Origin: Acidobacteriota bacterium
GTDB taxonomy: Bacteria; Acidobacteriota; Blastocatellia; UBA7656
DNA: 64,000 nt
Reading direction: 5' to 3'
Assembly (NCBI GenBank): GCA_040754075.1
Contig: JBFMDH010000002.1
Coordinates: 326,221-390,220, forward strand
The first letter of the stretch is position 1. Every line of letters starts with the position of its first letter. Under the pieces are notes generated by a model that searched no databases, had not been told where the DNA came from, and saw nothing but the letters and a program-made list of their open reading frames with translations. Below, in pieces: positions 28,195-44,587 of the stretch. The position numbers and the translations under genes are program-made.

Positions 28195-28201
28195 TTGGCT
28201 A

Positions 28202-29998
28202 ATGAAACCGTCATCATTTCTACATAACTCATTAATCGTCATCGGCGGCGCGTCGCTCGATATTCTGCATTTTGCGGGGCGCACCGAACGTTCAGCCGGA
28301 GGCTCAGGGCTTTATACATCGCTTGCGGCGCATCGCATGGGGCGGCGTGTGACCATGATTGCGCCGCGTCCCAGTCCTGTGCCGCCTGAGCTTGAACTTG
28401 CTGATGAGCGCCTGGATTGGCGTGGCGTCGCGTTTCCTCCCGAAGAGTTGCCGACCTTTGAAATCGCGCACCTCGGCAACGGACAAACCAAATATCTGAA
28501 CATCTGGTGGCGAGCCGAAAAATATCTGTCGCTCGATTACGTGCCGGATGATTTGCCTGAAGGCCTGGTCTACTGCATCCCGATGATTGATACCCAACAT
28601 CAGGTAGAATTTTTGCGCCACTTCAAATCGCTTGGTCGCGTTATTGCCTGCGGCACCCATCAAGGAGCGGTGAATCAGCAACTCGAAGCGGTGCGCGAGT
28701 CACTGAGCCTTGTGGATTTTTTCTTCTGCAATGAAGATGAAGCGCGCGGCATTTTCGGCACGCTCGACCGGGCGCGAACTGCAGCCGGTAAAACGCTTTT
28801 CATTACACGCGGCGCGCAAGGTGTGCGGGTTATTCAAGGCGAATACGCAACTGATGTTGCGGGCGTCTGGGTTGATGAATTAGACCCGACGGGTGCGGGC
28901 GATACTTTTTGTGGCACGACGCTCGCGCTGCTTGCCGAAGGCGCGCATCCGGTAATGGCGGCGCGATATGGCGTGGTTGCAGCGGCAGAAATGGTAACGA
29001 AAATCGGACCCGATGCTTTATTTAATGCGCCGCCTGTGACTGGGCAGGATGCCCGCGTAGAGATTGACTTGGAGCAGATAAAAAATATTGCATCATTCAT
29101 TCGCGGGATTTCGGAAGTAACGGCTTATGATTTCGTCGGCGAATATTTTCCCGAAGTCGGAAGCCCGCAGGCGCTTGACTATTTTTTCACAGCGACCTTG
29201 CAGCAATTCGGTTTTTGGAGCGAACAGGACGGGCGCTACTTTGAACCGATGATTGCTTCGATAAATGGTCGAAAGCTGAAAGGCAGTGATTATCTGTGGG
29301 CGACCTATTACCGGATGATGAACGAGCAGGCTGATTTGCTTTCACCCGCAGGACATGCCGCGCTTGATGCCGCAACGCTTGAAACCTTCTATCGTGCCGA
29401 TGACGCGAGCAATCCGCTGTCGGTTTTTGATGAACGGTTGAAACTGGCGCAAACTTACGGGCGCGATTTGCAAACCTTGGGACTCACGCCCGCTGAAATT
29501 ATTGAACGCGCCAACGCGAGCAACAAACCTTTGCAAACGTTTCTCGCTTTTCTCGATTACCTTGGCGGTTACAAAGAAGACCCGTTAAGAAAAAAATCGG
29601 CATTGCTGGCGATTATTTTGCAACAACGACCGGAAAAGTTTTTGCGTGAGTCAGGCGATGAACTGGTGCCGCCGATTGTTGATTATCACATTCAACGAAG
29701 TTGTTTGCGCATTGGATTGGTGAAAGTCGTTGACCGTGATTTACGCGAGCGTCTTGAACGACGCGAAGTCTTACTGCCCGCTGAAGAGTGGGCGATTCGC
29801 GAAGCGGTTTATCGCGCGATGAATGAATTGCAACAAGTGAGCGGCTGTTCGATGGGCGCACTGGATAAATTCTTTTTCGATAATCGTCACCGCTGTCCCG
29901 AAATGAGCGAACCCGATTGCGCCAGTTGCCCGATTGATGCAGTCTGCGCGCATCAGAAATCGCTTTTTCAACCGGTCATCCGCACAACCTTTTATTGA
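28202..29998 (+). CDS. PfkB-family carbohydrate/nucleoside kinase fused to ~320-aa C-terminal domain of unknown function ending in a 4-Cys motif
   Basis: Ribokinase-like N-terminal domain (IVIGGASLDIL...GGSGLYTS...DPTGAGDTFCG with the GAGD anion hole). The C-terminal half has no confident family; DUF2419/Q_salvage-like is tentative. The tail reads CPEMSEPDCASCPIDAVCAH. Track start 28139 overlaps the transporter; the ATG at 28202 is preferred. Confidence 0.6.
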   Translation: MKPSSFLHNSLIVIGGASLDILHFAGRTERSAGGSGLYTSLAAHRMGRRVTMIAPRPSPVPPELELADERLDWRGVAFPPEELPTFEIAHLGNGQTKYLNIWWRAEKYLSLDYVPDDLPEGLVYCIPMIDTQHQVEFLRHFKSLGRVIACGTHQGAVNQQLEAVRESLSLVDFFFCNEDEARGIFGTLDRARTAAGKTLFITRGAQGVRVIQGEYATDVAGVWVDELDPTGAGDTFCGTTLALLAEGAHPVMAARYGVVAAAEMVTKIGPDALFNAPPVTGQDARVEIDLEQIKNIASFIRGISEVTAYDFVGEYFPEVGSPQALDYFFTATLQQFGFWSEQDGRYFEPMIASINGRKLKGSDYLWATYYRMMNEQADLLSPAGHAALDAATLETFYRADDASNPLSVFDERLKLAQTYGRDLQTLGLTPAEIIERANASNKPLQTFLAFLDYLGGYKEDPLRKKSALLAIILQQRPEKFLRESGDELVPPIVDYHIQRSCLRIGLVKVVDRDLRERLERREVLLPAEEWAIREAVYRAMNELQQVSGCSMGALDKFFFDNRHRCPEMSEPDCASCPIDAVCAHQKSLFQPVIRTTFY

Positions 29999-30898: not shown

Positions 30899-33103
30899 AT
30901 GCTTATGAGAAACTTTGATTTTGCTGCTTATGTGCCACTGGCGATTTTAGGATTTATCGCTTTTCTGTTTCTGGTGTTTATCCTGCGACGATTCTTCGTC
31001 AACGTCGGGGCGCGTGAAATCGCCGTTAAAGAACGTCGCTATTTCGGCGCGAAAATGCCGCCGGGTCGCGTCATCGCTACCGAAGGCGAAGTCGGTATTC
31101 AAGCCGATGTTTTAAAACCCGGACTGCATTTAATCAAATGGCCTTTTGAACGAGTAGTGCAGAAATTCCCGTTGATAGAAATTGGCCCCGACGAAATCGG
31201 CGTCGTTGAAGCGATTGACGGCGAACCGATGCCGCCCGGCAGAATCTTTGCGCCCGACCGCGCGCAAAACGCTCATAACAATTTCCAGGACCCCATCGCC
31301 TTTATTAAACAAGGCGGCGTAAAAGGCATACAACTTCGCACTCTGCCGCCGGGATTGTGGCCGATTCACCCTTACCTATTCCGTGTGTCGCTCAACAAAA
31401 TGACGGTGATTCCGCAAGGCAAGGTCGGCGTGGTTTACGCCGCAGACGGGGCACCGCTTGATGCCGGACGGCTTTGCGCCAAAGCCATTGACGGGCACCG
31501 TAATTTCCAGGATGCCGAACAGTTCATCGCTTCGGGTGGTCAAAAAGGGCCACAGGTTGAAATCCTCACGCCCGGAACCTATCGCATTCTGACAGAATCA
31601 ATCCCGCTCGGCGGCGGACAGGAACGCAAACCCGGATTGCTTTCGGTGCGGTTGTATGATGCGACGATTATCAATGAGAATCAGGTCGGTTTGGTTGAAG
31701 CCCTGGACGGCGCACCGCTTGACCCGCGCGATTATGTTGCCACGCCCGTCGAAGGTCACGACAATTTTAATGACGGTAATGAATTCATTCGGCGCGGCGG
31801 TCAACGCGGACCACAAAAAGACATCCTTCTTCCGGGTACTTATTACATCAATCCGTTGCTTTTCAAAGTGATTCCCGAAAAAGCCGGAGAGGTGAAACCC
31901 GGCGAAGTCGCGGTGATTGTTTCAAACGTTGGCAAAGACCCCTCGGATGAAGTGCGTCGTCGGATGGCTGAAAAAGTCCGCGAACGATTGGAACGCGAAG
32001 AGCAGGAGCAGATTGATAAAGCGGCTGCCCATCTCGACAAATTAGATGGGGACGCGGCGCGAACCGTTGAAGAGATCAAAGAAGAGTTGATGAAAGGCGA
32101 CCCTGCCGATCAACGCCTTGATGAAGGCGCGCACGAAGCCTACGTTGTGCCCGAAGGTTATCGCGGTATTCAGGAAACCGTCGTCGGCCCGGGTCGTTAC
32201 TATGTCAACACGCTTGCCGTATCGCCGATTATCATTCCCACGACGAACCAGACTGTGGAATGGACAGCGGGCGAAATCGCCAGTTCTTTCGACCCCTTTG
32301 AAGTCATCTCGAAAGACGGTTTCACCATGCAACTTGAAGTTCGCGTGGTGTTTCGCGTCAAACCCGAAGACGCGCCGTTTATGGTGGCGAAAATCGGTTC
32401 GATTGACCGCTTGATTCAAAACGTCATGCATCCGTTGATTGACTCGATTTTCCGCAATCAGGCGTCGGAAAGCTCGGCGATGGCTTACCTGCAAAACCGT
32501 CACGAAGAACAGGAACGCGCCGAAGCCCGTGTGCGAACCCATTTGCTCAAATATCATGTTGATGTAGTGAATGTTTTGATCTGTCACATACGTCTGCCGG
32601 AAGAGTTGATGAAAACGCAGACCGAAAAAATTCTCGCAGAACAGCGACAGACCATGTACAACGCTCAGCGCGAAGCCGAAGAGAAACGCATTCAGTTGGA
32701 AAAAACCAAAGCCCACGCCGACAATCAAAAGAATTTGATGGAGGCGACAGTTGGTGTGGAAATCGCCAGCAAACGTTCCGAACAACGCAAAGCCGAAGCC
32801 GACGGTGAAGCGCACTACATTCTTTCAACCGGTAAAGCCGAAGCCGAAAAAGTTCGCTTGATGGGCGAAGCGCAGGGTGTGGCGTATGCCGAACAGGTGA
32901 ATGCCATCGGACCGCAAGGCATTGCCTTGATTGAGACTTTGAAAGTCATCGGTGAAAAAGGCGTTCGCATCACCCCGGATGTAATGGCATCGGGCGGAAC
33001 GGGCGATAGCGGCAGCAACCTTGGAACATTGTTATTGTTGAACCTTTTCAAAAACCAGATGAATTTTGAAAACGGTTCCGGCAATGGCAATAAAAACAAG
33101 TAA
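30899..33103 (+). CDS. SPFH/band-7 (flotillin-like) membrane protein with triplicated ~100-aa N-terminal repeat and C-terminal coiled coil
   Basis: N-terminal TM, three repeats sharing DGxPxxxGR...HxNFQD...FIxxGGxxGxQ...LxPGxY, and a C-terminal SPFH-like region followed by an EA-rich coiled coil (flotillin-type). Confidence 0.6.
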   Translation: MLMRNFDFAAYVPLAILGFIAFLFLVFILRRFFVNVGAREIAVKERRYFGAKMPPGRVIATEGEVGIQADVLKPGLHLIKWPFERVVQKFPLIEIGPDEIGVVEAIDGEPMPPGRIFAPDRAQNAHNNFQDPIAFIKQGGVKGIQLRTLPPGLWPIHPYLFRVSLNKMTVIPQGKVGVVYAADGAPLDAGRLCAKAIDGHRNFQDAEQFIASGGQKGPQVEILTPGTYRILTESIPLGGGQERKPGLLSVRLYDATIINENQVGLVEALDGAPLDPRDYVATPVEGHDNFNDGNEFIRRGGQRGPQKDILLPGTYYINPLLFKVIPEKAGEVKPGEVAVIVSNVGKDPSDEVRRRMAEKVRERLEREEQEQIDKAAAHLDKLDGDAARTVEEIKEELMKGDPADQRLDEGAHEAYVVPEGYRGIQETVVGPGRYYVNTLAVSPIIIPTTNQTVEWTAGEIASSFDPFEVISKDGFTMQLEVRVVFRVKPEDAPFMVAKIGSIDRLIQNVMHPLIDSIFRNQASESSAMAYLQNRHEEQERAEARVRTHLLKYHVDVVNVLICHIRLPEELMKTQTEKILAEQRQTMYNAQREAEEKRIQLEKTKAHADNQKNLMEATVGVEIASKRSEQRKAEADGEAHYILSTGKAEAEKVRLMGEAQGVAYAEQVNAIGPQGIALIETLKVIGEKGVRITPDVMASGGTGDSGSNLGTLLLLNLFKNQMNFENGSGNGNKNK

Positions 33104-33183
33104 GGTTCAAGCTAACTGATAGAAAAATTTATATGCACAGATTCATTTTAATCTGTGCATATTTTTTGCGGAAAGGAATCAAA

Positions 33184-33426
33184 ATGGAAGCCATCAAACA
33201 TAAAGTTAGAATCCCTGCTGACAAACAAATCAAAATTCGCCTTCCCGATTATGTACTTGTCGATGAAGAGGCAGAAGTTATTGTACTTTTTAAGTCCGCG
33301 TCATCTAACCAGAGTAAAAAAGTTTCGCAGATGCAAGAGGCTGTTAATGATCCACTATTTCTGGCTGATTTAAATACTGTGATGGAAGATTTCAAATATG
33401 CCGATAACCTTGGAGAAGATTTATGA
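33184..33426 (+). CDS. MazE/AbrB-like antitoxin candidate (track start 33133)
   Basis: Small ORF (MEAIKHKVRIPADKQIKIRLPDYVLVDEE...) overlaps the downstream MazF-like ORF by 4 nt (ATGA) and lies in an AT-rich islet. Confidence 0.45.
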   Translation: MEAIKHKVRIPADKQIKIRLPDYVLVDEEAEVIVLFKSASSNQSKKVSQMQEAVNDPLFLADLNTVMEDFKYADNLGEDL

Positions 33427-33614
33427 AGGTTTCGCAATGGAGCGTTTGGCTTGCTAACCTTGACCCTGTTGTTGGTTCGGAGCAAGGGAAGACACGCCCT
33501 GTTTTAATTATCAGCGATACGGATTTGAATAATATTTTGCCTGTGGTCAATGTCCTACCTATCACTGGATGCTGTACGGTTCCAATTTGGAATCGCTTAA
33601 TGATTAAGTATTGA
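33423..33614 (+). pseudogene. truncated MazF/PemK-family toxin remnant (first ~48 aa only)
   Basis: MKVSQWSVWLANLDPVVGSEQGKTRPVLIISDTDLNNILPVVNVLPITG matches the MazF N-terminal half. The ORF then diverges and stops, and no C-terminal half appears in any frame. Confidence 0.6.
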
Positions 33615-33710
33615 ATCGCCTACCTGCCTCGCCTATACTGGCTGAGCCTGTCTGTCTGCAAAATCGCCCCGCAACTTTAATCATCCTTTTCGGAAATTCA
33701 CCGGGCGTTA

Positions 33711-34586
33711 ATGGAATCGAAACCTCTCAGAATTATCGCGCCGCTTGCGGTTTTATTGCTGTTTTACTGGGCGATTTATGTCGCGCCGCTCATGACTGGC
33801 AAAGATTCAGCGATTTTGAATGCCGAACAGGCGCATGAAATTTTTGACGAGAGCCGTTTCCAACTTCATGAAAAAAAATATCAGGAAGCGCTGGAACTCA
33901 CTGAGCGATTGAATAAAGCCTTTCCGCAAAATCATATCTATCTGGAACAACTGGCAACCATTCATCATTACCTGGGCAATTTCAAAGAAGAAGCTGACGC
34001 CTGGGAACGCTATATGCTCTATTCACCGACTCCCCTGGATGCCTGCCCGCAATTTGGCGAAGCTTACCGCGCCCTCAACCGGATTCCTGAAATGTTTGAG
34101 GCTTGTAAAAAATGCTATGAGTTAGACCCGCGTAACACTTACTCGATTTTCTTCCTGGCGCTTTCCTATGAACGGCTCGGGCAGCTTGAAAAAGCCCAAG
34201 AACTTTATGAAAAAGGCGTGGAAATATATCCGATTTACCCGGATTTGCGCATCGGTCTTACGCGCATCCATATACGCCTTGGCAACCTGGCGCAAGCGCG
34301 CGCGATCATCACCAAAGTCTATGAAGAATATCCCGACAATGTTGATGGATTATTGGCGATGGGGGTATTGCTGAGAGCCGAAGGTCGCGCCGGTGAAGCG
34401 AAAATGTTTCTTGAACGCGGCGTCGAGCTTTCACCCCGCTACACCGATTTTTACATCGTGCTGGCGGGGATTGCCGAAAGCGAAGGCAACCGCGAGGATG
34501 CCGTGGCTTATTACGATAAGGTTCTGGAACTTGCCCCCGATAATCCTGATATTGAAAGCAAACGCAAGCGATTGCTGGGAGGCTAG
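33711..34586 (+). CDS. TPR-repeat protein with N-terminal TM/signal segment
   Basis: Multiple 34-aa TPR units (AxxxYxxLG...A) and an N-terminal hydrophobic segment. Confidence 0.65.
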   Translation: MESKPLRIIAPLAVLLLFYWAIYVAPLMTGKDSAILNAEQAHEIFDESRFQLHEKKYQEALELTERLNKAFPQNHIYLEQLATIHHYLGNFKEEADAWERYMLYSPTPLDACPQFGEAYRALNRIPEMFEACKKCYELDPRNTYSIFFLALSYERLGQLEKAQELYEKGVEIYPIYPDLRIGLTRIHIRLGNLAQARAIITKVYEEYPDNVDGLLAMGVLLRAEGRAGEAKMFLERGVELSPRYTDFYIVLAGIAESEGNREDAVAYYDKVLELAPDNPDIESKRKRLLGG

Positions 34587-34588
34587 GG

Positions 34589-37102
34589 GTGTTCATACAA
34601 AAAGCTATCAGTTATGGTTCACGCCTGCTTTTTCTCGGCTTTTTTGTGTTGACCTCGGTTTATTGCCTGCTCGCCTATATTCCGTTTGCCTACTTTCAAT
34701 TTTTAAAATTCAATCACCTTGCCACGCTTACGGCTTTCGTTAAATTTCATCCGCTTATTTTCTGGGCAGTCGTGGTGGTTATTTTCCTAGGACTTCGCGA
34801 AGCCTTGCGTGCCGAGAAAACCCGTAACCTGACGCGCTTGCTTTTGGGCTTTCTCGTATTGACGGGTGTCGCGCTCAGCCTTCATCCGGCGCTTGCCAAT
34901 ATTCAAAACAACTTTGCGAGTTTCGTTTTCAGCATCCTTGCGTTAATTCCGGTTTTATTGCTCATCCTGATTGATTGGAAAACCCACATTGAAAAAGTTG
35001 AATGGACGAAAACCGATTTTAGCGAAGACCGGCGTATCTTTTTTGCGACCGTCTGCACTGCGCTTTTTGTCGCGCTGCTCTATACAACGATTTTCACTAT
35101 CCGGCAGGGGCAACAATCCGGCGGTTTGACAAAAAACGAACTGATGATTGCCGCAAGTTGGAGTCTGGTCTCGCACCTGTTGCTGTTTACCGCGCTGTTT
35201 GTGGCATTCAATTTCATTCGCGCCATCGCCCGATTATCCGAAAAGCCTGCCAAGACCGAATTTTTGATGTGCAATTTGCTCGGCATGTTGATGATGGCGT
35301 ATTCACTGAGAACCGTCGCGCTTGCCGGTATCTCGTTTTATGGTTTGCTCGCCAGCCTTTATTCTTACGTTGCGAGTTTCACTATCGTCGGCTTCATTGC
35401 CAGCCTCAGTTTACGCTTGTACAAACCCGAAGCCGGCGAAGTGCGTAGCGGGCTTGCATTCGCTTTGCTGCCATTTACTCTTGGACGCATTCATTCACCC
35501 ATCGCTCGCGCCATCTGGGTCGTTACGCTCATGGTTGTCGCCTATTTGCTTGCTGTTCAAGTTGCGTTATTTGACTGGAATTTTCTCGCGCAAAAACTCA
35601 CTGTCAACCTGATGTGGGTGGTGATATTCGCGTTCTTTTACGCAGTCACCAGGCGGTCATACAATAAACGCGATTTGACCTACGTTTTACTGGTGGTTGC
35701 CGCACTCAGTCTGGGATTTTATAAAGGCTTGAACCGGGCGCAGACGCAACTACCGGCGCTGACGAAAAACGCCAATCTCGATGTGCGCTCAACCCTTGAA
35801 CGCTATGCCGGTCAGGACATTTCGTTTCGCCTGATCAACGAAATCCTTACCCCGGTGCGCGATGACGGTTCATTCTTTCGGTTTCTGCAAAAAAATACCA
35901 ACATCCCGCAAGCCACCAGAGTTGACCCGGTGGATATAAAACTGGTTTCGGATTTGCAGGCGACGAAACATAAAAAGCCGAATATCTTTATCTTCACCAT
36001 TGACAGTCTGAGACAGGATTATCTATCCGCCTACAATGCGAAAGTGAATTTCACGCCGTCGCTTGATGCCTTTGCCAGAGAGAGCATCGTGATGGAAAAC
36101 GCTTTTACGCATTACGGCGCGACAGGGCTTTCGGAACCGTCAATCTGGGTTGGCGGAATGAGTGTGCATAAACAATATGTCACGCCGTTTCATCCGATGA
36201 ATACTTTACAGAAATTGATTGAGTCGGAAGGCTATCAAGCCTATATCAGCATGGATACGATTCTTTCCGTAGTCGTCAAACCTGAGCCGTATATCGAAGA
36301 GTTGAATGATGAAGAGAGCGGCAGAGAATATGAACTATGTGGCTGTTTAAAAAGTTTGCAAACCAAAATCGAAGCGCGAGCCGACACCGCCAATCCGCTT
36401 TTCGTTTATACCCAGCCGCAAAATATTCATGTTTCGGTGATTAACCGGCAAGGGCAATCCATTGTCGAAGCCGGAGATTACACAGGATTTTATGCGCCGT
36501 ATGCTTCACGGGTTAAAAAAATCGACAGATGTTTCGGCGAATTTGTGGAGTTTCTCAAACGTAAAGAGATGTATGACAACAGCGTGATTGTGTTTACCTC
36601 AGACCACGGCGATTCGCTCGGCGAAAATGGACGCTGGGGACATGCCTATACGATTTATCCCGAAATTATTCGCATTCCGCTCATCATTCATCTGCCGCCG
36701 CATTTACAAAAAGGGCTGGTTTGGAATACGCAAACCCTGGCTTTTTCAACAGACATCACCCCGAGTCTGTATTACCTGTTCGGACATCGGAACTTGATGA
36801 ATCATCCGATGTTCGGCAGACCGTTGTTTACCGAAAGCGAAGAGGAACAGTCGGCTTACTTACAGCCCTGGTATTTGATTAGTTCGAGCTATGGCGCGGT
36901 CTATGGCATTTTGAGCAACAACGGTCGGTCGCTCTATATCAGCGATGCGGTGAATTACGCCGATTACTTTTACGATTTGGAACACGACCCGGCGGGCACA
37001 CACAATCAAACGAACTCGTTTATTAAAATGGAAAATGAAAAATTGATTCGTGAAGGCATTGAAAAGATTAACGAAATGTATCGCTTTAACCCCGCTGAGT
37101 GA
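34589..37102 (+). CDS. polytopic membrane protein with C-terminal sulfatase/alkaline-phosphatase-superfamily domain (LtaS/EptA/BcsG-like phospho-transferase)
   Basis: About 430 aa of multiple TM helices, then NIFIFTIDSLRQDY... and TSDHGDSLGENGRWGH, which are metal-binding motifs of the sulfatase family. First gene of the putative EPS locus. Confidence 0.7.
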   Translation: MFIQKAISYGSRLLFLGFFVLTSVYCLLAYIPFAYFQFLKFNHLATLTAFVKFHPLIFWAVVVVIFLGLREALRAEKTRNLTRLLLGFLVLTGVALSLHPALANIQNNFASFVFSILALIPVLLLILIDWKTHIEKVEWTKTDFSEDRRIFFATVCTALFVALLYTTIFTIRQGQQSGGLTKNELMIAASWSLVSHLLLFTALFVAFNFIRAIARLSEKPAKTEFLMCNLLGMLMMAYSLRTVALAGISFYGLLASLYSYVASFTIVGFIASLSLRLYKPEAGEVRSGLAFALLPFTLGRIHSPIARAIWVVTLMVVAYLLAVQVALFDWNFLAQKLTVNLMWVVIFAFFYAVTRRSYNKRDLTYVLLVVAALSLGFYKGLNRAQTQLPALTKNANLDVRSTLERYAGQDISFRLINEILTPVRDDGSFFRFLQKNTNIPQATRVDPVDIKLVSDLQATKHKKPNIFIFTIDSLRQDYLSAYNAKVNFTPSLDAFARESIVMENAFTHYGATGLSEPSIWVGGMSVHKQYVTPFHPMNTLQKLIESEGYQAYISMDTILSVVVKPEPYIEELNDEESGREYELCGCLKSLQTKIEARADTANPLFVYTQPQNIHVSVINRQGQSIVEAGDYTGFYAPYASRVKKIDRCFGEFVEFLKRKEMYDNSVIVFTSDHGDSLGENGRWGHAYTIYPEIIRIPLIIHLPPHLQKGLVWNTQTLAFSTDITPSLYYLFGHRNLMNHPMFGRPLFTESEEEQSAYLQPWYLISSSYGAVYGILSNNGRSLYISDAVNYADYFYDLEHDPAGTHNQTNSFIKMENEKLIREGIEKINEMYRFNPAE

Positions 37103-37293
37103 CGCTAAAAATTTGTATTGTAACCTGTTAAGGGGAGCCTTAAAATCTAGAAGCTTTTGTCAGGGCGCAAATTATAAATATAAATTCAGTTACCAAGCTA
37201 CAGCGTATTTGCCTCAGACTTCCTGAATGCCCCTCATCCTGAAAGGCTGTCATGCTGCCTGTTTTTGGGTTCAATCTTTGTGAGTATTTGTCT

Positions 37294-38526
37294 ATGGTTC
37301 GTCAGCTTTATCCCTTCTTTAAAATGCTGGCAATTATTATTTGTCTGGCGATTCCGGTTTTTTCACAAGCGGAAAGCTTGGATGACCTCTATGCGAAAGC
37401 CCGCGATTTAGCTTTCGATGGCAAACGTCAGGAGGCAAAAACGCTTTGCGCGACAATCCTTGAACGAAATCCCAATTACCACGATGCGCGTTTATTGCTT
37501 GGACGGCTGCACCTGTGGGACTGGGAGTATGAATCTGCAAGAGCGGAATTAACCCGGGTGGTTACCTTAAAGCCCGCGTATGCGGATGCGCGCGATGCCT
37601 TGATCGATGTGGAGTTGTGGTCGGAACATAATCAGGAGGCGCTCCAGCTTTGTGAAGCAGGACTTCAACTGGACGCCAACAATAAAATTTTTTATTACAA
37701 AAAAGCCAAAGCTTTAAAATATTTGAAACGCGAAAAGGAAGCTATTGAATCGGTAAAAATTGCCTTGCAGCTTGAACCGGAATATCGCGAAGCCCGGATT
37801 TTGCTGAAAGATTTGCAGGAGTCGCAGAAAGCCTACTGGGTAAAAGCCGAATACTCCTATGATTATTTCGATAAAAATTTAGACCCCTGGCAACAACTGT
37901 CCGTGAGCGTTTCCCGACAGACAAAAATCGGTTCGATGATTGGTCGTGTCAATCATGCCAAACGCTTCAATGACCATGCGACGCAATTTGAAATCGATTC
38001 CTATCCGCGCCTCCGGCAGGGAACCACGGCTTACTGGAACGTTGGCGTGTCGTCGTCTTACGCCTTTCCAAAATTCAGGTTCGGAGCAGAGGTTTATCAG
38101 AAACTCTCGGATGGGTTTGATAGTTCAATCGGCGTTCGTTACCTGCATTTTACCGGCGCGAACATCATGATTTACACAGGGTCTATCGGCAAATATCACG
38201 GCAACTACCTATTTCAATTTCACCCGTTCATTACGCCGAGTTCCATCGGTTCTTCGGTGTCGGGAAATTTCAGCGTCCGCCGCTATCTTGAAAACGCCGA
38301 TAACTATTTCACCGTATCGGTTGGCTTGGGTTCGTCGCCGGATGAACGCTATAACGCGCTGGAATTGATTCGTTTGAAATCGCAGAAACTCGGCGTGGAT
38401 TGGCGCAAAGCCGTAGGCGCTGGGTTGATTGTCGAAGGTTATTTCGGATTATCGAATCAGCAATTGAAGTATGGAGAGAGCCGCAGAAATTACACTTTCA
38501 GTTTTGCAATGGCAAAAAGATTTTAA
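37294..38526 (+). CDS. outer-membrane protein: signal peptide + TPR repeats + C-terminal YaiO-type beta-barrel (short PgaA-like porin); track start 37252
   Basis: Signal peptide MLAIIICLAIPVFSQAES and TPR units in the N-terminal half. The C-terminal half shows an amphipathic beta-strand pattern with a terminal aromatic residue (AMAKRF). Confidence 0.65.
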   Translation: MVRQLYPFFKMLAIIICLAIPVFSQAESLDDLYAKARDLAFDGKRQEAKTLCATILERNPNYHDARLLLGRLHLWDWEYESARAELTRVVTLKPAYADARDALIDVELWSEHNQEALQLCEAGLQLDANNKIFYYKKAKALKYLKREKEAIESVKIALQLEPEYREARILLKDLQESQKAYWVKAEYSYDYFDKNLDPWQQLSVSVSRQTKIGSMIGRVNHAKRFNDHATQFEIDSYPRLRQGTTAYWNVGVSSSYAFPKFRFGAEVYQKLSDGFDSSIGVRYLHFTGANIMIYTGSIGKYHGNYLFQFHPFITPSSIGSSVSGNFSVRRYLENADNYFTVSVGLGSSPDERYNALELIRLKSQKLGVDWRKAVGAGLIVEGYFGLSNQQLKYGESRRNYTFSFAMAKRF

Positions 38527-38545
38527 GATGTGACTAAAAATAAAT

Positions 38546-39616
38546 GTGTCGAGGTTGGACAAAAATACAGAAGAAAGTTTTGTAGTCAAGATGGGTTTAT
38601 GGAGAGAGACAACTCAGGAGCTTGGTACAGAACCGGAAAAAGAAGAGCTGGAGAATCAGGAGAAAGGAATGCTTTGGGGAGATACAGCGTCAAAACCTGA
38701 TATATCATCCGGGCAATTTGAAATTACGGTAAACGGCGAGAGCCATGCAACCATCGCGTTTGCGACAACCGAACCGGTTGCTGACCTCATCGTTCATCTT
38801 CCCGTCGAAGTTTTTGAAACCCCTGCCGAAATTTTATCCGTGCTTGCGGGCAAAAGAATGGCGGTCATCGGTTTTGAAAATTCCGAAGCGGACAAAATTT
38901 TAAAAACCTTTACGCCTACGCAAATTTCTTCAACCGTTCTGGAGTGGGCAGAGGTGTTGCCGCAATCGGAATCGCTGCGCCAACACGATGCGTTTGTCTT
39001 GAATTTTCCCAGCAAAAATAATGATGCCGTATGGTTGAAACTGAGCGATTTATCGAGGGTGAAAAAGCCGATTATCTGCATCGGACACGCCGCGCTGCTT
39101 TTGCAACGGGCGCATAAAATCAGAGACTATGTGAGCGAATTTTTAATCACCCCGGTGCGCGAAGAAGAATTGTTGCTGCGCCTTTACAATGCCCTGTCAG
39201 CCGTTGTCACTGAAACTGCGGGTCAAACGGTTGCGAAAAATGCAACGGTTAAAGTTGTACTCGCCGATGATGACCCGACGACGGTTACGCTGGTTTCAAC
39301 GATTTTAAGAAAATACGACATCGAATGTCACATCGCGCAAAACGGGCAGGAGGTGGTTGATTTGTGTAAAGCCGTGCAACCCGACGCCGCCATCTTTGAC
39401 ATCAGTTTGCCGTACATTGATGGGTTTGAAGTTTTGAAATTATTGAAAAATGATGCAACAACCTTTGAAATTCCGGTCATCTTGTTGACCGCGCGAAAAC
39501 AGGAAACCGATATTATGCGAGCTTTTGCTTTGGGTACGGAAGATTACATTACCAAACCATTCAATCCGATGGAACTCATTGCCCGACTCAAACGACTGTT
39601 AAAACTGCCTGCATAA
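38546..39616 (+). CDS. response regulator: degenerate receiver-like domain + C-terminal canonical REC domain, no output domain
   Basis: The C-terminal section has a REC Asp pocket (ADDDP...D in IFDISLPYIDG...T...K in ITKPF). The preceding domain has a REC-like topology but lacks the acidic residues. Confidence 0.65.
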   Translation: MSRLDKNTEESFVVKMGLWRETTQELGTEPEKEELENQEKGMLWGDTASKPDISSGQFEITVNGESHATIAFATTEPVADLIVHLPVEVFETPAEILSVLAGKRMAVIGFENSEADKILKTFTPTQISSTVLEWAEVLPQSESLRQHDAFVLNFPSKNNDAVWLKLSDLSRVKKPIICIGHAALLLQRAHKIRDYVSEFLITPVREEELLLRLYNALSAVVTETAGQTVAKNATVKVVLADDDPTTVTLVSTILRKYDIECHIAQNGQEVVDLCKAVQPDAAIFDISLPYIDGFEVLKLLKNDATTFEIPVILLTARKQETDIMRAFALGTEDYITKPFNPMELIARLKRLLKLPA

Positions 39617-39651
39617 GCGAATGTTATTTTTGCCATTATCGACTGACTGAT

Positions 39652-40833
39652 ATGCAAGTTGCAAAACTGACCACAAAAGCCATGATCTGGTTTAAAACCA
39701 TGCTGGTCGCAGGCGTGTACGTCATTGCCATCGCAATGGTTTTCGCCAAAGTATTTTCCAAAACCCCTGACACCTTGCCCTTTCTGATTGCGCTTTCATT
39801 TTTGGCGGTGCAGACCGGCGCTATCGTGGCGTTGATTGCCGTGGTTATTTACAAAAGAGTGTTTGCGGAAATCAAAGCGAAACGTGAACGGAAAATTTTA
39901 CCGGTCATTCGTGAACTGCTGGCAGCGCATACGCTCGGCGATGACCGTTTGGCGGAACTCCGAGAACTGAATGGCGATTACCCGGATGAGGTCGAACAGA
40001 GTCTTGCGCACTTTCTCACCTCATTTACCGGCGAAGCGCGAGACCGCATTTCCGAACTGGCAGTGAATCTGGGGCTTTTGCGACGATGGGTAAAGCGCAG
40101 TAAATCGTTCAATCCGGCGCGTCGCGAAGAGGCGATACTCAGAATCGGACAGTTGACCTGCGATGAAGCGAGCGACCTGCTGTTTGCCGCGCTGAAAGAT
40201 GACGAACCGGGCGCGCGCACGGAAGCCTATCGCGCCTTGATTCGGTCGGAACAGCCTGACCGCATCGCGCAAGTATTTCCCTTCATCGCCAGTGAATCAC
40301 TGCTTGTACGGGCATTGCTGGTTGACGAACTGCAACCGCACGCGCTCTTTTTAATCAAAGCAGTCATCCCCGAATTGATTTCCTCAAACGATGCGAAAAA
40401 AATCATGGCGACGTTTGAATTGATTGGCGCGTGGAAAAATATTCTGCCGCTTGCTGATGTCTTTCATCTGCTCGACCATTCCGAACCCGAAGTCCGCGCC
40501 AAAGCCTTGCGGGCGCTCTCTTACACGATGGCTGGCGAAGAGTTGGAAATCCGTATCATCAACGCCTTTGAAGATGAACACCACGAAGTCAAAATCGCTG
40601 CCGCTTACGCTGCCGCAAGACTAAAAATCGAACAGGCGCTCGAAAAATTAGAACATTGTTTGCAGGATGCCCGTGAAGAAGTTCGCCGCGCCGCTGCCTA
40701 TGCGCTCGCCCAACTGGGCGCGAAAGGCACGGCGGTGCTTGAACGCGAAATGCTCTCCGCCAATCACTATACCGCGTCAACGGCGCTTGAAATGCTTGAG
40801 CGCGTCTACATAGACCGATGTGAGGTCGTATGA
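39652..40833 (+). CDS. HEAT/PBS-lyase-repeat protein with two N-terminal TM helices
   Basis: Two N-terminal hydrophobic helices, then repeated EVRxxAxxALxxLG HEAT-like units. The stop overlaps the GT2 gene start (ATGA). Confidence 0.6.
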   Translation: MQVAKLTTKAMIWFKTMLVAGVYVIAIAMVFAKVFSKTPDTLPFLIALSFLAVQTGAIVALIAVVIYKRVFAEIKAKRERKILPVIRELLAAHTLGDDRLAELRELNGDYPDEVEQSLAHFLTSFTGEARDRISELAVNLGLLRRWVKRSKSFNPARREEAILRIGQLTCDEASDLLFAALKDDEPGARTEAYRALIRSEQPDRIAQVFPFIASESLLVRALLVDELQPHALFLIKAVIPELISSNDAKKIMATFELIGAWKNILPLADVFHLLDHSEPEVRAKALRALSYTMAGEELEIRIINAFEDEHHEVKIAAAYAAARLKIEQALEKLEHCLQDAREEVRRAAAYALAQLGAKGTAVLEREMLSANHYTASTALEMLERVYIDRCEVV

Positions 40834-42302
40834 TGCTGCTGGAATTCAATATCAACTTTTACAAAATATTCAATTTCTTTGAGTATTTCATCATTCTGTA
40901 TGTCGGTCTCATCGCGGTTATCTATTTTTTAATGATGACGCTTGGCTATTTCGGATTGCGCAATTATCGCGCGCGATTCAAACGCGATGAACTGGAAGCC
41001 TTGTTGAAATCGCCCCTGTTGCCGCAGGTCGCCATTCTCGCGCCGGCATATAACGAAGCCGCAACCTGTCGCGACAGTGTGCGCGCCATGCTCAAGTTGC
41101 ATTATCCGAATCACGAAGTCATCGTCATTAACGACGGTTCCAAAGATGACACCCTGAACATTCTCATCGAAGAGTTTCGCCTGTATCGTTCGAGTCGCGT
41201 GGCATCGGATGCCATCGTCACCAAACCGATTAAAGCGATTTACGAATCCCGCGACCCCATTCGCCTGGTGGTGATTGATAAAGAAAATGGCGGCAAAGCC
41301 GATTCCTTGAATGCCGGATTGAATGTTGCGCGCGCCTCGCTGGTTTGCGCCGTGGATGCCGATTCACTGCTTGAATCGGATGCTTTGCTGCTTTCCGTAA
41401 AACCTTTTCTGGAAGAGCCTGATAAAACCATCGCGGTTGGTGGAACGATTCGCATCGCCAACGGTTGTTCCGTCGAACATGGGAAAATCACCCGCGTGGT
41501 TGCGCCCAATTCGATGCTTGCCAAATTTCAAGCCGTCGAATATATGCGGGCATTTTTAGGCGGGCGCGTGGCATTCAGTTTCATCAATGCATTGTTGATT
41601 ATCTCAGGCGCGTTCGGGGTTTTTCGCCGTGATGCGATGCTGGCGATTGGCGGATTTTATCCCGACACGGTTGGCGAAGATATGGAACTGGTGGTGCGAC
41701 TCCACAGAACCTGGCGCGAAATGAAAAAGGATTATCGCATCGTGTTTATTCCTGAGCCGGTGTGTTGGACGGAAGTGCCTGAGAAATTAAAAATCCTGCA
41801 TCGCCAGCGCAATCGCTGGCAACGCGGCACCGTTGATAGTCTCTGGTTTCATCGCAAAATGATGTTCAATCCGAAATACGGGGTGATTGGCACCTTTGCT
41901 TTTCCCTATTTTCTGATGTTTGAAATGTTCGGTCCAGCGGTTGAAGCGACCGGTTATTTTCTGACGGTTATCGGGCTTTTTTTGAACATCATTTCCTGGA
42001 AAGCGGCGTTTCTGTTTTTTCTGGTTTCGGTGGTCTTCGGTATTCTGCTCTCCGTCAGTGCATTTATTCTTGAAGAACTCACGTTGCGTCGCTATCCAAC
42101 ACTCAAAGATGCAAGCAAACTGTTCATTGCCGCCATCATTGAAAATTTCGGGTTTCGCCAACTGATGACCCTGTGGCGAGCCGAAGGGTTGATTGATGGC
42201 ATCCGTCGCAAACAGGGGTGGGGGGCAATGGAACGCAAAGGATTTCAAGCTACACAAGCCATTCAACAACCGACCGCTGCGCCGCCAAACCCGCTACCGT
42301 AG
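40830..42302 (+). CDS. family-2 glycosyltransferase, processive synthase type (PgaC/IcaA/HmsR-like, poly-beta-1,6-GlcNAc synthase family)
   Basis: N- and C-terminal TM helices, DxD-type motifs (NDGSKDDT, DADS), GGKADSLNAG and the QRNRW processivity motif. Similarity to PgaC is from memory of conserved blocks. Confidence 0.75.
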   Translation: MMLLEFNINFYKIFNFFEYFIILYVGLIAVIYFLMMTLGYFGLRNYRARFKRDELEALLKSPLLPQVAILAPAYNEAATCRDSVRAMLKLHYPNHEVIVINDGSKDDTLNILIEEFRLYRSSRVASDAIVTKPIKAIYESRDPIRLVVIDKENGGKADSLNAGLNVARASLVCAVDADSLLESDALLLSVKPFLEEPDKTIAVGGTIRIANGCSVEHGKITRVVAPNSMLAKFQAVEYMRAFLGGRVAFSFINALLIISGAFGVFRRDAMLAIGGFYPDTVGEDMELVVRLHRTWREMKKDYRIVFIPEPVCWTEVPEKLKILHRQRNRWQRGTVDSLWFHRKMMFNPKYGVIGTFAFPYFLMFEMFGPAVEATGYFLTVIGLFLNIISWKAAFLFFLVSVVFGILLSVSAFILEELTLRRYPTLKDASKLFIAAIIENFGFRQLMTLWRAEGLIDGIRRKQGWGAMERKGFQATQAIQQPTAAPPNPLP

Positions 42303-43811
42303 CCGTTTTCGCGGCTCTATACGTTTGACGAATTTCCCTTCAAGATTGAGCACCTCGACAGTGCCGAGTTCGGCGAGTTGCGCGCCGAGTTTCGCCGCAT
42401 CGCCGACCACAATAATAATTGCATCATTGGTTTGAATATATTTTTGCGCGGCTTGCTGGATTTGTTCGGCAGTGACGGCTTCAACGCGCTCACGATAGGT
42501 TTCCAGAATAGTTTTCGGCAGTCCGAGCATTCGATAGGTGACGATGCGGTCGGTGATGCCGCCCTGGGTTGAAAGCGAAAGCGAAAAATAACCGTTCAAA
42601 TAATTCTTGGCGTTTTGCAAGTCAGCGGCGCTTACGGGGACTCTACGCAGGCGTTCAAATTCCGCGAGCATCTCTTTGATTGCTGCAAGAGTCACAGCGG
42701 TTCGGGTCTCACTTGCGCCGAAAAAGACGCCGCGCTGGCGCGGAGCCGCGACCGAACTCGACACGTCATAAGTGAAACCTTTCTTCTCGCGCAAATTCAA
42801 AAAAAGTCGGGAACTTGTCCCATCACCTAAAATCGCGTTCGCGACCAGCAGCGGGAAAAAATCTGCGTCGGCGCGCGCCACGCCTAAACTGCCGATGCGA
42901 AAATCGGCTTGTTCGGATGCGGCGCGGTCAATCAGATAAATTTTGCGTTTCGTGGATTCGGGCATCGCTGGCAATGTCGCGGTTTGCGAATCGGCGGATT
43001 GCCATTTGCCGAAAAGCGCTTCTAGTTTGCCCTGGATTTTCGTCGCATCAAAGTCACCTGTCACAACCAATATGGAATTGGTCGGGGTGTAATAGCTTTT
43101 GTGAAAGCTTGCGATTTTTGCGCGGTCAATCGCCGCGATAGATTCCGGCGTAGGCGTTGAGTTGGCGTAAGGGTGCGCGCCATAAATGGCTTTATAAAAT
43201 TGCCGGGCGACGAGAAACGACGGCTCCTGTCGTTGCACGGTTAAACTTTCAACGCGATTTTTTTTGTAGAGCGCAACTTCGTTTTCAGGAAAACTCGGAT
43301 GCAAAACGGCATCGCTGAATACCTCAAGCATGCGTTCAAGGTTTTCGGCAATCACCGTGGTCATGATTTCCGTGTAATCTTCATAAGACGCGGCGGATAG
43401 TTGCGCGCCCAGGGTTTCAACTTCGCGGTCGATTTCTACACTGGTACGATTGCCAGAGCCTTCGGTGATGAGCGCAGCGGTAGTTTCAGCAAGTCCCGTG
43501 AGGTTGGGCGGGTCGTTGATGTCACCAACCGGAATCCCCAGGTTGACACTAACCATCGGAATGCGATGGTCGGGAATTAAAATCAGTGTCAGTCCGTTAT
43601 CAAGTTTGACTTCACGCTGATTGGGTAATTTCAAAGGACGTGGCGGAACCTGCGGCGGCGGCTGTTTGCGCCAGGCTTCAATGACGGTGGTTTTTTTAGT
43701 CGGAGCGGTTTGGTTTTTTTGCGGGCGTTGTGCAACGCCGCTTATCTGGATAGCGATAAGCAAAAGTAACGCAAGGCTCAGGTTGCCAGATAACGCTTTC
43801 TTCATCTTCAT
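42294..43811 (-). CDS. M16-family peptidase, non-catalytic subunit (no HxxEH)
   Basis: Insulinase fold with a signal peptide and no inverted zincin motif. Paired with the catalytic M16 gene at 44627. Confidence 0.7.
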   Translation of the reverse strand: MKMKKALSGNLSLALLLLIAIQISGVAQRPQKNQTAPTKKTTVIEAWRKQPPPQVPPRPLKLPNQREVKLDNGLTLILIPDHRIPMVSVNLGIPVGDINDPPNLTGLAETTAALITEGSGNRTSVEIDREVETLGAQLSAASYEDYTEIMTTVIAENLERMLEVFSDAVLHPSFPENEVALYKKNRVESLTVQRQEPSFLVARQFYKAIYGAHPYANSTPTPESIAAIDRAKIASFHKSYYTPTNSILVVTGDFDATKIQGKLEALFGKWQSADSQTATLPAMPESTKRKIYLIDRAASEQADFRIGSLGVARADADFFPLLVANAILGDGTSSRLFLNLREKKGFTYDVSSSVAAPRQRGVFFGASETRTAVTLAAIKEMLAEFERLRRVPVSAADLQNAKNYLNGYFSLSLSTQGGITDRIVTYRMLGLPKTILETYRERVEAVTAEQIQQAAQKYIQTNDAIIIVVGDAAKLGAQLAELGTVEVLNLEGKFVKRIEPRKRLR

Positions 43812-44587
43812 TAAATTTTATCGGGGTCTTTGCCGAGTTCGCGCAGCCTTGCCGCCAACCGTTCAGCTTTTTGCAACGCTTCTTCGGCTTTCAGCAATGC
43901 GGCTTCTTTTTCGGCGCGTTCTTTTTCTTTTTCGGCGCGTTCAAGTTTGGCGCGTTCTTCGCCGGTTAGCAGCAGATTGCCTGCTTCATCAACCCAGCGC
44001 AACCAGGCGCGCTTGACGCCTTCAAATTCGCCTTCCCACAAAATCAATCCCAAGCCGATGGTTTCGAGTTTGTGAGAGAGCTGTTTGCGGTAACGAAAGC
44101 CATGTAGTTTATAAATCGTCAGCACGTTTTTGCTGAGAAATTTATCCGGGTCGAAGATGACATAATATTCGACCTTCATCCGCGCATACTTGCGCATCTT
44201 TTCACCGGCTTCTTCGCCGACCTGATTGGAAACGATTTCGAGAGCGACTTCGGGCGGTTTGCCAAATTCCCAGATGAAGTACGAGCGGTGCTCTTTCGCC
44301 CACCAGTCTTCGGCGACTTCGACATCAAGGCTTAAAAATATATCCGGCACCACCGGCGGATTTTTCGCTTGATAAAAAATGCCGACGTTGGCACAGGCTA
44401 AAAATTTGCGCTTCCCCTCAACGTCTTTCCACGAAGTGTAAAGTGTGCGGGTGAGCAAGCGTTGCTGTTTCTCCGAAGGGATATTATCCACAGGTTCATC
44501 ATCCTCCGTGATGAGGTCTTCGATATTTGGCGTATAGAGATTAAGCGCCTGTGACATAAGCTTTCCTCCGCTTGAACTGGCAACCAC
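43811..44587 (-). CDS. Uma2-family (DUF820) putative restriction-endonuclease-like protein with C-terminal Glu/Lys/Ala coiled coil
   Basis: PD-(D/E)xK-like core (DIFLSLDVEV...EYFIWEF...EIVS) typical of the Uma2 family, and a C-terminal KLERAEKEKERAEKEAALLKAEEALQKAERLAARLREL tail. Confidence 0.65.
   Translation of the reverse strand: MVASSSGGKLMSQALNLYTPNIEDLITEDDEPVDNIPSEKQQRLLTRTLYTSWKDVEGKRKFLACANVGIFYQAKNPPVVPDIFLSLDVEVAEDWWAKEHRSYFIWEFGKPPEVALEIVSNQVGEEAGEKMRKYARMKVEYYVIFDPDKFLSKNVLTIYKLHGFRYRKQLSHKLETIGLGLILWEGEFEGVKRAWLRWVDEAGNLLLTGEERAKLERAEKEKERAEKEAALLKAEEALQKAERLAARLRELGKDPDKI

Follow-up and report, generated by a model that had tools for sequence, protein, structure and literature searches.

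How a polysaccharide synthase of the PgaC/IcaA type might be controlled and connected to the cell surface when its usual partners are missing is the question raised by a gene cluster from an Acidobacteriota bacterium (JBFMDH010000002.1, positions 326,221-390,220). This 64,000-nt stretch is referred to below as the window, and all coordinates are counted within it. A sequence-only reading had described five co-directional, tightly spaced genes, encoding a sulfatase-like membrane protein, a YaiO-type porin, a receiver-only regulator, a HEAT-repeat membrane protein and a family 2 glycosyltransferase (GT2). These five open reading frames (ORFs) and their domains were confirmed at the coordinates given below, and profile searches of each ORF against Pfam and NCBIfam/TIGRFAMs returned the domain families that had been named. 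None of the three findings that had been listed as refuting this reading was obtained. We consider it fairly probable that the locus is a synthase-dependent polysaccharide secretion system which is gated by the HEAT-repeat protein, switched by phosphorylation and served by YaiO as exporter. The features of the locus are the following:

33611-33639, + strand: candidate sigma-70-like promoter TTGAAT-17-TATACT, weak and from a consensus scan only, 72 nt 5' of the tetratricopeptide repeat (TPR) gene
33711-34586, + strand: periplasmic TPR protein, 291 aa, with an N-terminal signal anchor (aa 8-26) and matches to TPR Pfam families
34589-37102, + strand: sulfatase-like membrane enzyme, 837 aa (Pfam Sulfatase; AlphaFold2 model)
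37252-38526 (likely start 37294), + strand: YaiO outer-membrane export protein, 424 aa (PF19413, TIGR04390, TPR)
38546-39616 (likely start 38591), + strand: response regulator without output domain, 356 aa (Response_reg)
39652-40833, + strand: HEAT-repeat inner-membrane protein, 393 aa (HEAT_2), with two transmembrane (TM) segments
40830-42302, + strand: processive GT2 polysaccharide synthase, 490 aa (GT2 Pfam families; PgaC_IcaA as best NCBIfam model)

The ORF list and direct reading of the sequence thus place six tightly packed genes on the + strand between 33711 and 42302, with intergenic distances of 2, 149, 19, 35 and -4 nt in that order, as expected from the compact, co-directional arrangement first described. 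The five-gene extent itself was incomplete, because the TPR gene also belongs to the locus: its stop lies 2 nt before the sulfatase-like gene and the two are co-conserved, being directly adjacent in 16 of the 19 related loci that encode a sulfatase-like protein.

What does the synthase make? The GT2 protein is supported as a membrane-embedded processive polysaccharide synthase with a complete motif set, from which polymer synthesis is predicted. D102, K156, D176xD178, G282-E283-D284 and Q326-R-x-R329-W330 (Q326RNRW330 in the window) are invariant in 21 homologues and, by comparison with BcsA, make up the whole motif set of processive membrane GT2s; TM segments lie on both sides of the glycosyltransferase (GT) domain. 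The protein matches GT2 Pfam families and Chitin_synth_2, with a weak match to Glyco_transf_21 (2e-5). Among NCBIfam models, PgaC_IcaA ranks first (4.5e-46), followed by an XrtG-associated GT, CelA and NodC, all of them membrane synthases, while the PDB matches are BcsA (2e-9, over aa 39-427, covering both the GT and TM regions) and hyaluronan synthases. The initial description of a processive, PgaC/IcaA-like enzyme was therefore accurate, yet the protein is not a PgaC equivalog, as detailed below. Since most of the nearest GT2 families polymerise N-acetylglucosamine (GlcNAc), a hexosamine polymer is our best guess for the product, and no more than a guess.

With which partners does this synthase work? 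In a scan that took one genome per species, the GT2 family was found in at least 569 bacterial and archaeal species, with 91% identity to the window protein in the closest relatives and 60-70% in Abditibacteriaceae, Planctomycetota and Thermoanaerobaculia. Gene neighbourhoods were surveyed in the best 80 loci by GT2 similarity (45-68% identity), by searching the window proteins against all ORFs of these loci and then iterating with profiles. The 80 loci include Acidobacteriota, Balneolaceae (among them the cultured Gracilimonas sp. Q87 and Fodinibius sp. SL11), Bacteroidota, Gammaproteobacteria and Allosphingosinicella, together with Chloroflexota, Dehalococcoidales, Clostridia, Thermoleophilia, Margulisiibacteriota and two archaeal metagenome-assembled genomes (MAGs). 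A gene for a HEAT-repeat membrane protein stands directly 5' of the GT2 gene, on the same strand, in 81 of 82 non-duplicate loci, and this adjacency extends to Thermoplasmatota, Clostridia, Chloroflexota and Thermoleophilia. A receiver gene lies on the same strand within a few kb upstream of the GT2 gene in most related loci; outside Acidobacteriota it usually encodes a single domain of 120-147 aa. Histidine kinases were the sole additional recurrent neighbour family (16 loci), and no deacetylase, second glycosyltransferase or cyclic di-GMP (c-di-GMP) protein was recurrent among the neighbours in the approximately 80 related loci.

The exporter and the remaining genes follow a different distribution. 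Scored by a barrel-only profile, YaiO was present in 0 of 9 single-membrane or archaeal loci vs 31 of the 43 loci with adequate flanks outside those lineages. The sulfatase-like gene occurs in 19 loci, 18 of them in Acidobacteriota and one in Planctomycetota, and the 291-aa TPR protein was never seen without it in the surveyed loci. In many genomes YaiO, TPR and sulfatase-like genes form a divergent operon beside the receiver-HEAT-GT2 genes; in a close relative (locus L091), all six genes are co-directional as in the window, with the TPR gene in the same position. The system is therefore modular: receiver, HEAT and GT2 form a universal core, the YaiO exporter is found outside single-membrane and archaeal lineages, and the TPR and sulfatase-like proteins are a lineage-specific addition. 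It follows that the neighbourhood is conserved for receiver, HEAT and GT2, for YaiO only outside the single-membrane and archaeal lineages, and for TPR and the sulfatase-like enzyme mainly in Acidobacteriota, so that the idea of five genes conserved as one unit has to be given up. Because the same gene set recurs across dozens of independent genomes, the grouping is not due to chance.

Two of the surveyed loci deserve separate mention. In an archaeal MAG (L076, RXIG01000021.1, 8879-13196), the HEAT-GT2 pair is followed by a multi-TM gene resembling sensor histidine kinases; the archaeal HEAT gene encodes 355 aa with one TM helix and HEAT repeats and has its stop directly against the start of the GT2 gene, and a receiver gene was not detected within the 10-kb flanks. 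An apparent 1118-aa HEAT-GT2 fusion in locus L048 was rejected as an ORF-calling artefact in high-GC DNA.

The window HEAT protein (HEAT_2, 3.7e-18) has TM segments at aa 17-35 and 48-66; a basic stretch and about seven HEAT repeats come after them. The PDB entries that it matches best are designed proteins of the alphaRep HEAT type. Direct reading of the sequence shows that its stop codon overlaps the GT2 start as ATGA at 40830-33, with GAGG five bases upstream. Together with the near-universal adjacency, this overlap agrees with the proposal of a two-TM partner subunit, and from gene order the protein is probably a tightly coupled partner of the synthase. One TM segment is predicted in 42 of its orthologues and two in 27, with a mean net charge of +3.2 in the 20 residues past the last TM segment, which by the positive-inside rule places the solenoid in the cytoplasm. 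HEAT identity is 65% where GT2 identity is 91%, and conservation is confined to generic repeat positions, as would be expected of a scaffold or adaptor more than of an enzyme. This rapid evolution also explains why a word-indexed homologue search with the HEAT protein gave only 19 matches. An identical protein in an NCBI Acidobacteriota MAG is annotated only as 'HEAT repeat domain-containing protein'.

How could synthesis be controlled? The regulator contains a C-terminal receiver (Response_reg, 1.1e-25, aa 237-348) with D241/D242, D285, T315 and K337 in place, preceded by a pseudo-receiver of about 125 residues (approximately aa 96-220) in which Asp, Thr and Lys are replaced by Asn153, Gly180 and Thr202, respectively. 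Pfam returned nothing significant on the N-terminal 232 aa, and the pseudo-receiver was recognised by comparing an alignment from 14 loci with the receiver alignment (hhalign probability 93.9%, E 1.5e-7, approximately 73 columns). The N-terminal 80-90 residues are acidic and conserved in the close relative, whose 342-aa protein is 62% identical over the full length and starts at the equivalent of M16; the window regulator probably starts at M16 (38591) as well. No DNA-binding or enzymatic output domain was found in the regulator, in agreement with its first description as a degenerate receiver joined to a canonical one. Other Acidobacteriota have a receiver-pseudo-receiver-receiver architecture, and elsewhere the regulator is a bare receiver. 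Since the receiver is cytoplasmic and is encoded next to a HEAT protein that would form a platform on the cytoplasmic side of the synthase, it may control the synthase directly, at the post-translational level, and the secretion system is probably gated by phosphorylation. There is a precedent in a different pathway, where the receiver-only protein EpsW directly activates the polysaccharide enzyme EpsZ (PMC12802240).

Control by c-di-GMP, which had been proposed on account of PilZ and PilT genes in the window, was considered and rejected. Both genes are present (PilT-like, 16561-17769; PilZ, 18453-19367), but they lie 15-20 kb from the locus among housekeeping genes, and no such association is seen elsewhere; the genes that adjoin the system are instead those of receivers and, often, of histidine kinases. 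PilZ, GGDEF, EAL, MshEN and GIL domains were absent from the six locus proteins, and none was recurrent among the neighbours in related loci. The PilZ gene (+ strand) encodes a PilZ domain fused to DUF4388, approximately 700 nt 3' of the PilT-like ATPase gene, and has no detectable link to the locus.

By which route would the polymer leave the cell? The YaiO protein matches PF19413 (9.5e-60, 202 bits vs a cut-off of 23.9) and TIGR04390 (2.5e-51, 174.8 vs 32) as well as TPR families, and it ends in a C-terminal Phe. Started at 37294 (M15), the protein corresponds to the 410-aa gene product called in a close relative and has a normal signal peptide. The AlphaFold2 model, built with 45 homologues, has a predicted local distance difference test (pLDDT) score of 92.4 and a predicted template-modelling (pTM) score of 0.80. 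It comprises a signal helix, ten helices forming five TPR-like pairs (aa 43-191) and 14 beta-strands (aa 195-423), so the barrel expected for 37294-38526 is recovered. The barrel is of the OmpG/CymA type, with TodX and PorV also matched, and PgaA, BcsC and AlgE were not among the top 60 structural matches of the model; the PgaA porin model TIGR03939 was not reached (19.9 bits vs 366.65). Family scores and model together uphold the view of a YaiO-type porin with a TPR section, and by its modelled architecture the protein is a short PgaA/BcsC analogue of a different, smaller barrel class, for which export is predicted.

The combination of TPR and YaiO is common, with 606 representative clusters at E<=1e-30. 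Natural GT2-YaiO fusions of 783-785 aa occur in Thermoanaerobaculia (protein clusters P0042, P0046 and P0053; L004/L005, 10001-12352), joining an inner-membrane synthase to an outer-membrane TPR-barrel through a signal-peptide-like junction with an AxA site ('...GWGAMERRGF-TAGVVLCLLLAPSAFA-QEDP...'); that such a segment is kept at the junction argues that the GT2 C-terminus is cytoplasmic. In E. coli K-12, the yaiO operon contains yaiP (GT2), yaiX (an acyltransferase gene split by IS2) and yaiS (deacetylase). Since yaiO shares an operon with a homologous GT2 gene, the pairing of GT2 and YaiO is recurrent and can be regarded as a family trait. The E. coli cluster (L086, NC_000913.3, 380069-384616) carries yaiS, yaiP, yaiX and yaiO on the same strand and is the cryptic polysaccharide locus to which the founding YaiO belongs; the searched literature contained no functional study of YaiO or of yaiP/yaiS.

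What do the two lineage-specific proteins add? The 291-aa protein matches many TPR Pfam families (up to 7.8e-24) and has one hydrophobic segment. The sulfatase-like protein matches Pfam Sulfatase (5.9e-25, aa 464-732) after approximately 450 hydrophobic residues, on which Pfam returned nothing significant. Its AlphaFold2 model (pLDDT 88, pTM 0.85) shows 11 TM helices, linker helices and a domain of the alkaline-phosphatase fold; the basic N-terminus and the 11 helices would place this catalytic domain in the periplasm. D472, T512, E516, D672, H673 and H685 are invariant in 40 homologues. T512 occupies the position of the sulfatase Cys/Ser, and T512-G-L-S-E516 replaces C/S-x-P-x-R; with Thr in place of the formylglycine Cys/Ser and the C/S-x-P-x-R motif absent, true sulfatase chemistry is unlikely. 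LtaS, EptA and NPP-type enzymes combine a Thr nucleophile with an Asp/Asp-His metal site, which makes phosphoryl transfer a likelier activity than hydrolysis of sulfate. The fold and active-site layout of lipid-headgroup phosphotransferases (Thr, metal ligands, N-terminal TM domain) are thus present. The proposed assignment to the sulfatase/alkaline-phosphatase superfamily stands on the Pfam match, the model and the Thr site, and that to the LtaS/EptA/BcsG family does not. A polymer-modifying phosphotransferase is a reasonable hypothesis drawn from these residues, though one to which we would give somewhat less than even odds. An identical protein in an NCBI Acidobacteriota MAG is annotated only as 'sulfatase-like hydrolase/transferase'.

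The mechanism that we propose connects these proteins in sequence. At the cytoplasmic face, GT2 would build the chain from a nucleotide sugar, with a UDP-hexosamine as the likeliest substrate, and thread it through its own membrane channel, working in complex with the HEAT protein anchored alongside. The response regulator, which has no output domain, would dock on the cytoplasmic solenoid of the HEAT protein, and an unlinked histidine kinase would phosphorylate it at D285 and thereby switch polymerisation on or off post-translationally. This switch would take the role played by c-di-GMP receptors in the cellulose, poly-beta-1,6-GlcNAc (PNAG), alginate and Pel systems. In the periplasm, two TPR scaffolds would handle the chain, which in this lineage may be modified by the 11-TM enzyme, most plausibly through transfer of a phospho-headgroup from a membrane lipid, before it would exit the cell through the 14-stranded YaiO barrel.

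Several observations weigh against this mechanism. The HEAT-GT2 and receiver-HEAT contacts are deduced from gene order only, no histidine kinase gene stands beside the locus in the window, and 12 of the 43 well-flanked loci gave no barrel match. A literature search, from which most subscription-journal papers were missing, found no study of any HEAT-GT2 system or member. The remaining points concern the decorating enzyme. Its domain scores higher on true sulfatases (80 bits) than on EptA or LtaS (18-25 bits), and its C-terminal half resembles S1 sulfatases above EptA or LtaS; the arylsulfatase and choline-sulfatase models gave 77-80 bits vs cut-offs of 433-481, and EptA, LtaS and YejM gave 25 vs 660, 18.4 vs 970 and 22.3 vs 825, respectively. 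BcsG and OpgB showed no family-level match (hhalign probability 11.6% and 4.6%). In a Foldseek search against PDB, PbgA/YejM and S1 sulfatases tied at approximately 1e-12, which does not separate transferase from hydrolase, and PbgA/YejM, the top fold match, is not known to be a transferase.

These last points feed the strongest alternative, that the enzyme is a hydrolase (a phosphodiesterase or esterase) which trims or releases the polymer, or acts on another envelope substrate, and that the polymer carries no phospho-substituent. The closest sequences are S1 sulfatases, PehA and phosphonate monoester hydrolases, family-level relation to BcsG, OpgB, EptA and LtaS is lacking, and the enzyme is missing from most core loci, hence not needed for polymer synthesis or export. 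Against hydrolysis speak the replacement of C/S-x-P-x-R by T-G-L-S-E, the layout shared with the headgroup transferases LtaS, EptA and BcsG, in which a large lipid-facing TM domain is fused to a periplasmic catalytic domain with a Thr nucleophile, the pairing with a periplasmic TPR scaffold and the clustering with export genes. We regard a hydrolase as somewhat unlikely.

A second alternative accepts polymer export and reassigns the product: the locus would be a divergent PNAG system of the pga/ica type, in which GT2 makes poly-beta-1,6-GlcNAc and the other genes replace PgaA, PgaB and PgaD. PgaC_IcaA is indeed the top named family, the synthase is nearer to E. coli PgaC (27% identity, E 2e-30) than to E. 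coli YaiP (25%, E 2e-13) or to NfrB, with which similarity was not significant (E 0.008), and the NodC, chitin synthase and hyaluronan synthase matches also use UDP-GlcNAc. The protein nonetheless scores only 157.6 bits on the PgaC/IcaA equivalog TIGR03937, far under the cut-off of 422.3, and the GT2 family, 45-70% identical internally across phyla and only 27% identical to PgaC, forms a separate orthologous group. The porin fails the PgaA model and has 14 strands, and no deacetylase or PgaD-like gene was found in the locus or recurred in about 80 related loci. The initial judgement that this is not a pga operon is thereby sustained, with synthase and porin both below their pga cut-offs, and a PNAG product by this route is unlikely.

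The weakest alternative, in which GT2-HEAT makes a membrane glycolipid, a periplasmic glucan or short oligosaccharides, like NodC, OpgH or GT21-type enzymes, and the barrel and sulfatase-like enzyme serve envelope lipid or lipopolysaccharide (LPS) homeostasis, can point to the Glyco_transf_21 and NodC matches, to GT2-HEAT pairs in archaea and single-membrane bacteria without porin, to the LPS-binding regulator PbgA/YejM as top fold match and to E. coli OpgB, an enzyme annotated with the alkaline-phosphatase fold that decorates periplasmic glucans, but it is improbable given the full QxxRW-type motifs, the alignment of BcsA and hyaluronan synthase over the GT and TM regions, the TPR-barrel protein (a hallmark of polymer export and not of glycolipid synthesis) in most well-flanked loci outside single-membrane and archaeal lineages, fusions included, and a complete catalytic tetrad that PbgA is not known to have.

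The phosphorylation-switched secretion system thus remains the reading that we prefer. What would set it apart from described ones? Synthase-dependent secretion is known through cellulose, PNAG, alginate and Pel, and through minor systems such as Nfr, and to our knowledge those described are all controlled by c-di-GMP. A systematic survey of synthase-dependent operons makes no mention of HEAT proteins or response regulators (PMC7112194), and we think it unlikely that some member of the present family has already been described. As a tentative proposal, for which we would claim somewhat less than even chances, receiver-HEAT-GT2 may constitute a distinct and ancient synthase class, spanning Thermoplasmatota to Acidobacteriota, in which HEAT reads receiver phosphorylation and replaces c-di-GMP, with the TPR-YaiO exporter added by bacteria outside the single-membrane lineages, and the 11-TM Thr enzyme, which would decorate the polymer in the periplasm, added by Acidobacteria. 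Should the mechanism hold, it would add a synthase gated by phosphorylation and a co-subunit of a new type, give the YaiO family a function that extends to the cryptic yaiO-yaiP cluster of E. coli, and open a new branch of membrane enzymes of the alkaline-phosphatase fold. The species carrying the core include Acidobacteriota, Bacteroidota/Balneolaceae and Planctomycetota, phyla that dominate in soils and sediments and about whose matrix polymers little has been learned. The interest of the locus thus lies in its breadth, which reaches archaea, in its apparent control by phosphorylation and in the functional lead that it offers for YaiO and the 11-TM Thr enzyme.

The surroundings of the locus define its limits. 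On the downstream side it is closed by convergent M16 peptidase genes, between two of which the window carries a gene for a Uma2-family putative endonuclease (43811-44587, - strand); the two peptidase genes are adjacent in the close relative L091, so the Uma2 gene looks inserted in the window. On the upstream side, a perfect 13-bp hairpin (33131-33162) followed by a T-run lies 28 nt past the stop of a Band_7 gene and is likely a bidirectional terminator shielding the locus from upstream transcription. It is followed by a pair of small ORFs on the + strand (33184-33426 and 33423-33614) sharing an ATGA overlap. The second (63 aa) matches the PemK/MazF profile over the first 44 of 109 positions only (4e-12), and the pair is therefore read as a truncated toxin-antitoxin remnant; it is missing in L091, where the intergenic gap measures 304 nt vs 607 nt in the window. 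The candidate promoter lies 3' of both hairpin and remnant. The Band_7 gene (30899-33103) was considered as a member of the system and rejected: it is syntenic only in the closest relative, phmmer found no homologues of its product in other loci, and the terminator-like hairpin and toxin remnant separate it from the locus.

Elsewhere in the window, an 860-aa ORF (1852-4434, + strand) with an N-terminal LptC-related domain and LptA/LptD_N-like domains lies 5' of ABC ATPase and sigma-54 genes. It could represent LptC fused to LptA, the gene order being otherwise that of a typical lptCAB-rpoN-hpf-rapZ cluster. A 553-aa ORF without Pfam match (14579-16240, + strand) stands between selA and the PilT-like ATPase gene, and a 619-aa ORF (28139-29998, + strand) shows an unusual fusion of PfkB-family sugar kinase and queuosine-salvage (Q_salvage) domains.

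How, then, does the locus compare with known systems? Judged by membership, it falls under none of the pga, bcs, alg, pel and nfr systems. PgaABCD is the nearest in plan, with a membrane GT2 that bears the same motifs and is the nearest named relative of the window synthase, a small inner-membrane partner encoded beside it and an outer-membrane protein combining TPR with a C-terminal barrel. The window partner is nevertheless a 393-aa HEAT protein encoded upstream of the synthase, whereas pgaD (137 aa) lies downstream of pgaC. The reported absence of a PgaB deacetylase and of PgaD also proved correct, no deacetylase domain or small PgaD-like ORF being found within 33.7-42.3 kb. At 424 aa and 14 strands, the window porin is smaller than PgaA (807 aa, with a 16-stranded barrel), and a response regulator occupies the locus where c-di-GMP control would stand.

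With the Bcs system the locus shares its kind of synthase, which can be aligned to BcsA in both the GT and the TM region, a TPR-barrel exporter and a polytopic enzyme of the alkaline-phosphatase superfamily that has a periplasmic domain and is encoded beside the synthase, the E. coli counterpart being BcsG by annotation. It differs in having no BcsB, PilZ domain or BcsE/Q/R, and its sulfatase-like enzyme is no BcsG relative, with 11 TM helices vs approximately 4-5 and a TPR partner of its own. The E. coli yaiS-yaiP-yaiX-yaiO cluster offers the founding YaiO barrel in an operon with the homologous GT2 YaiP, but contains a deacetylase and an acyltransferase, and lacks the HEAT protein, the receiver, the TPR extension on YaiO and the sulfatase-like enzyme. 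In the Pel system, the synthase complex is scaffolded by PelE, a two-TM protein with a cytoplasmic all-alpha, TPR-like repeat domain, and the exporter is the TPR-barrel protein PelB. The window HEAT protein resembles PelE in general layout, although a sequence relationship was not detected, and Pel uses a GT4 enzyme, the c-di-GMP receptor PelD and the deacetylase PelA. The NfrA/NfrB system of E. coli, which makes poly-N-acetylmannosamine, resembles the locus by annotation in its minimal operon of a GT2 and a TPR-containing outer-membrane exporter; NfrB is, however, activated by c-di-GMP and the two synthases have no significant similarity. For the proposed mode of control, the closest parallel is EpsW-EpsZ of Myxococcus xanthus, in which a phosphorylated receiver-only regulator activates an enzyme by direct binding (PMC12802240), although that pathway is Wzx/Wzy-dependent, its target is a phosphoglycosyl transferase and no HEAT adaptor takes part.

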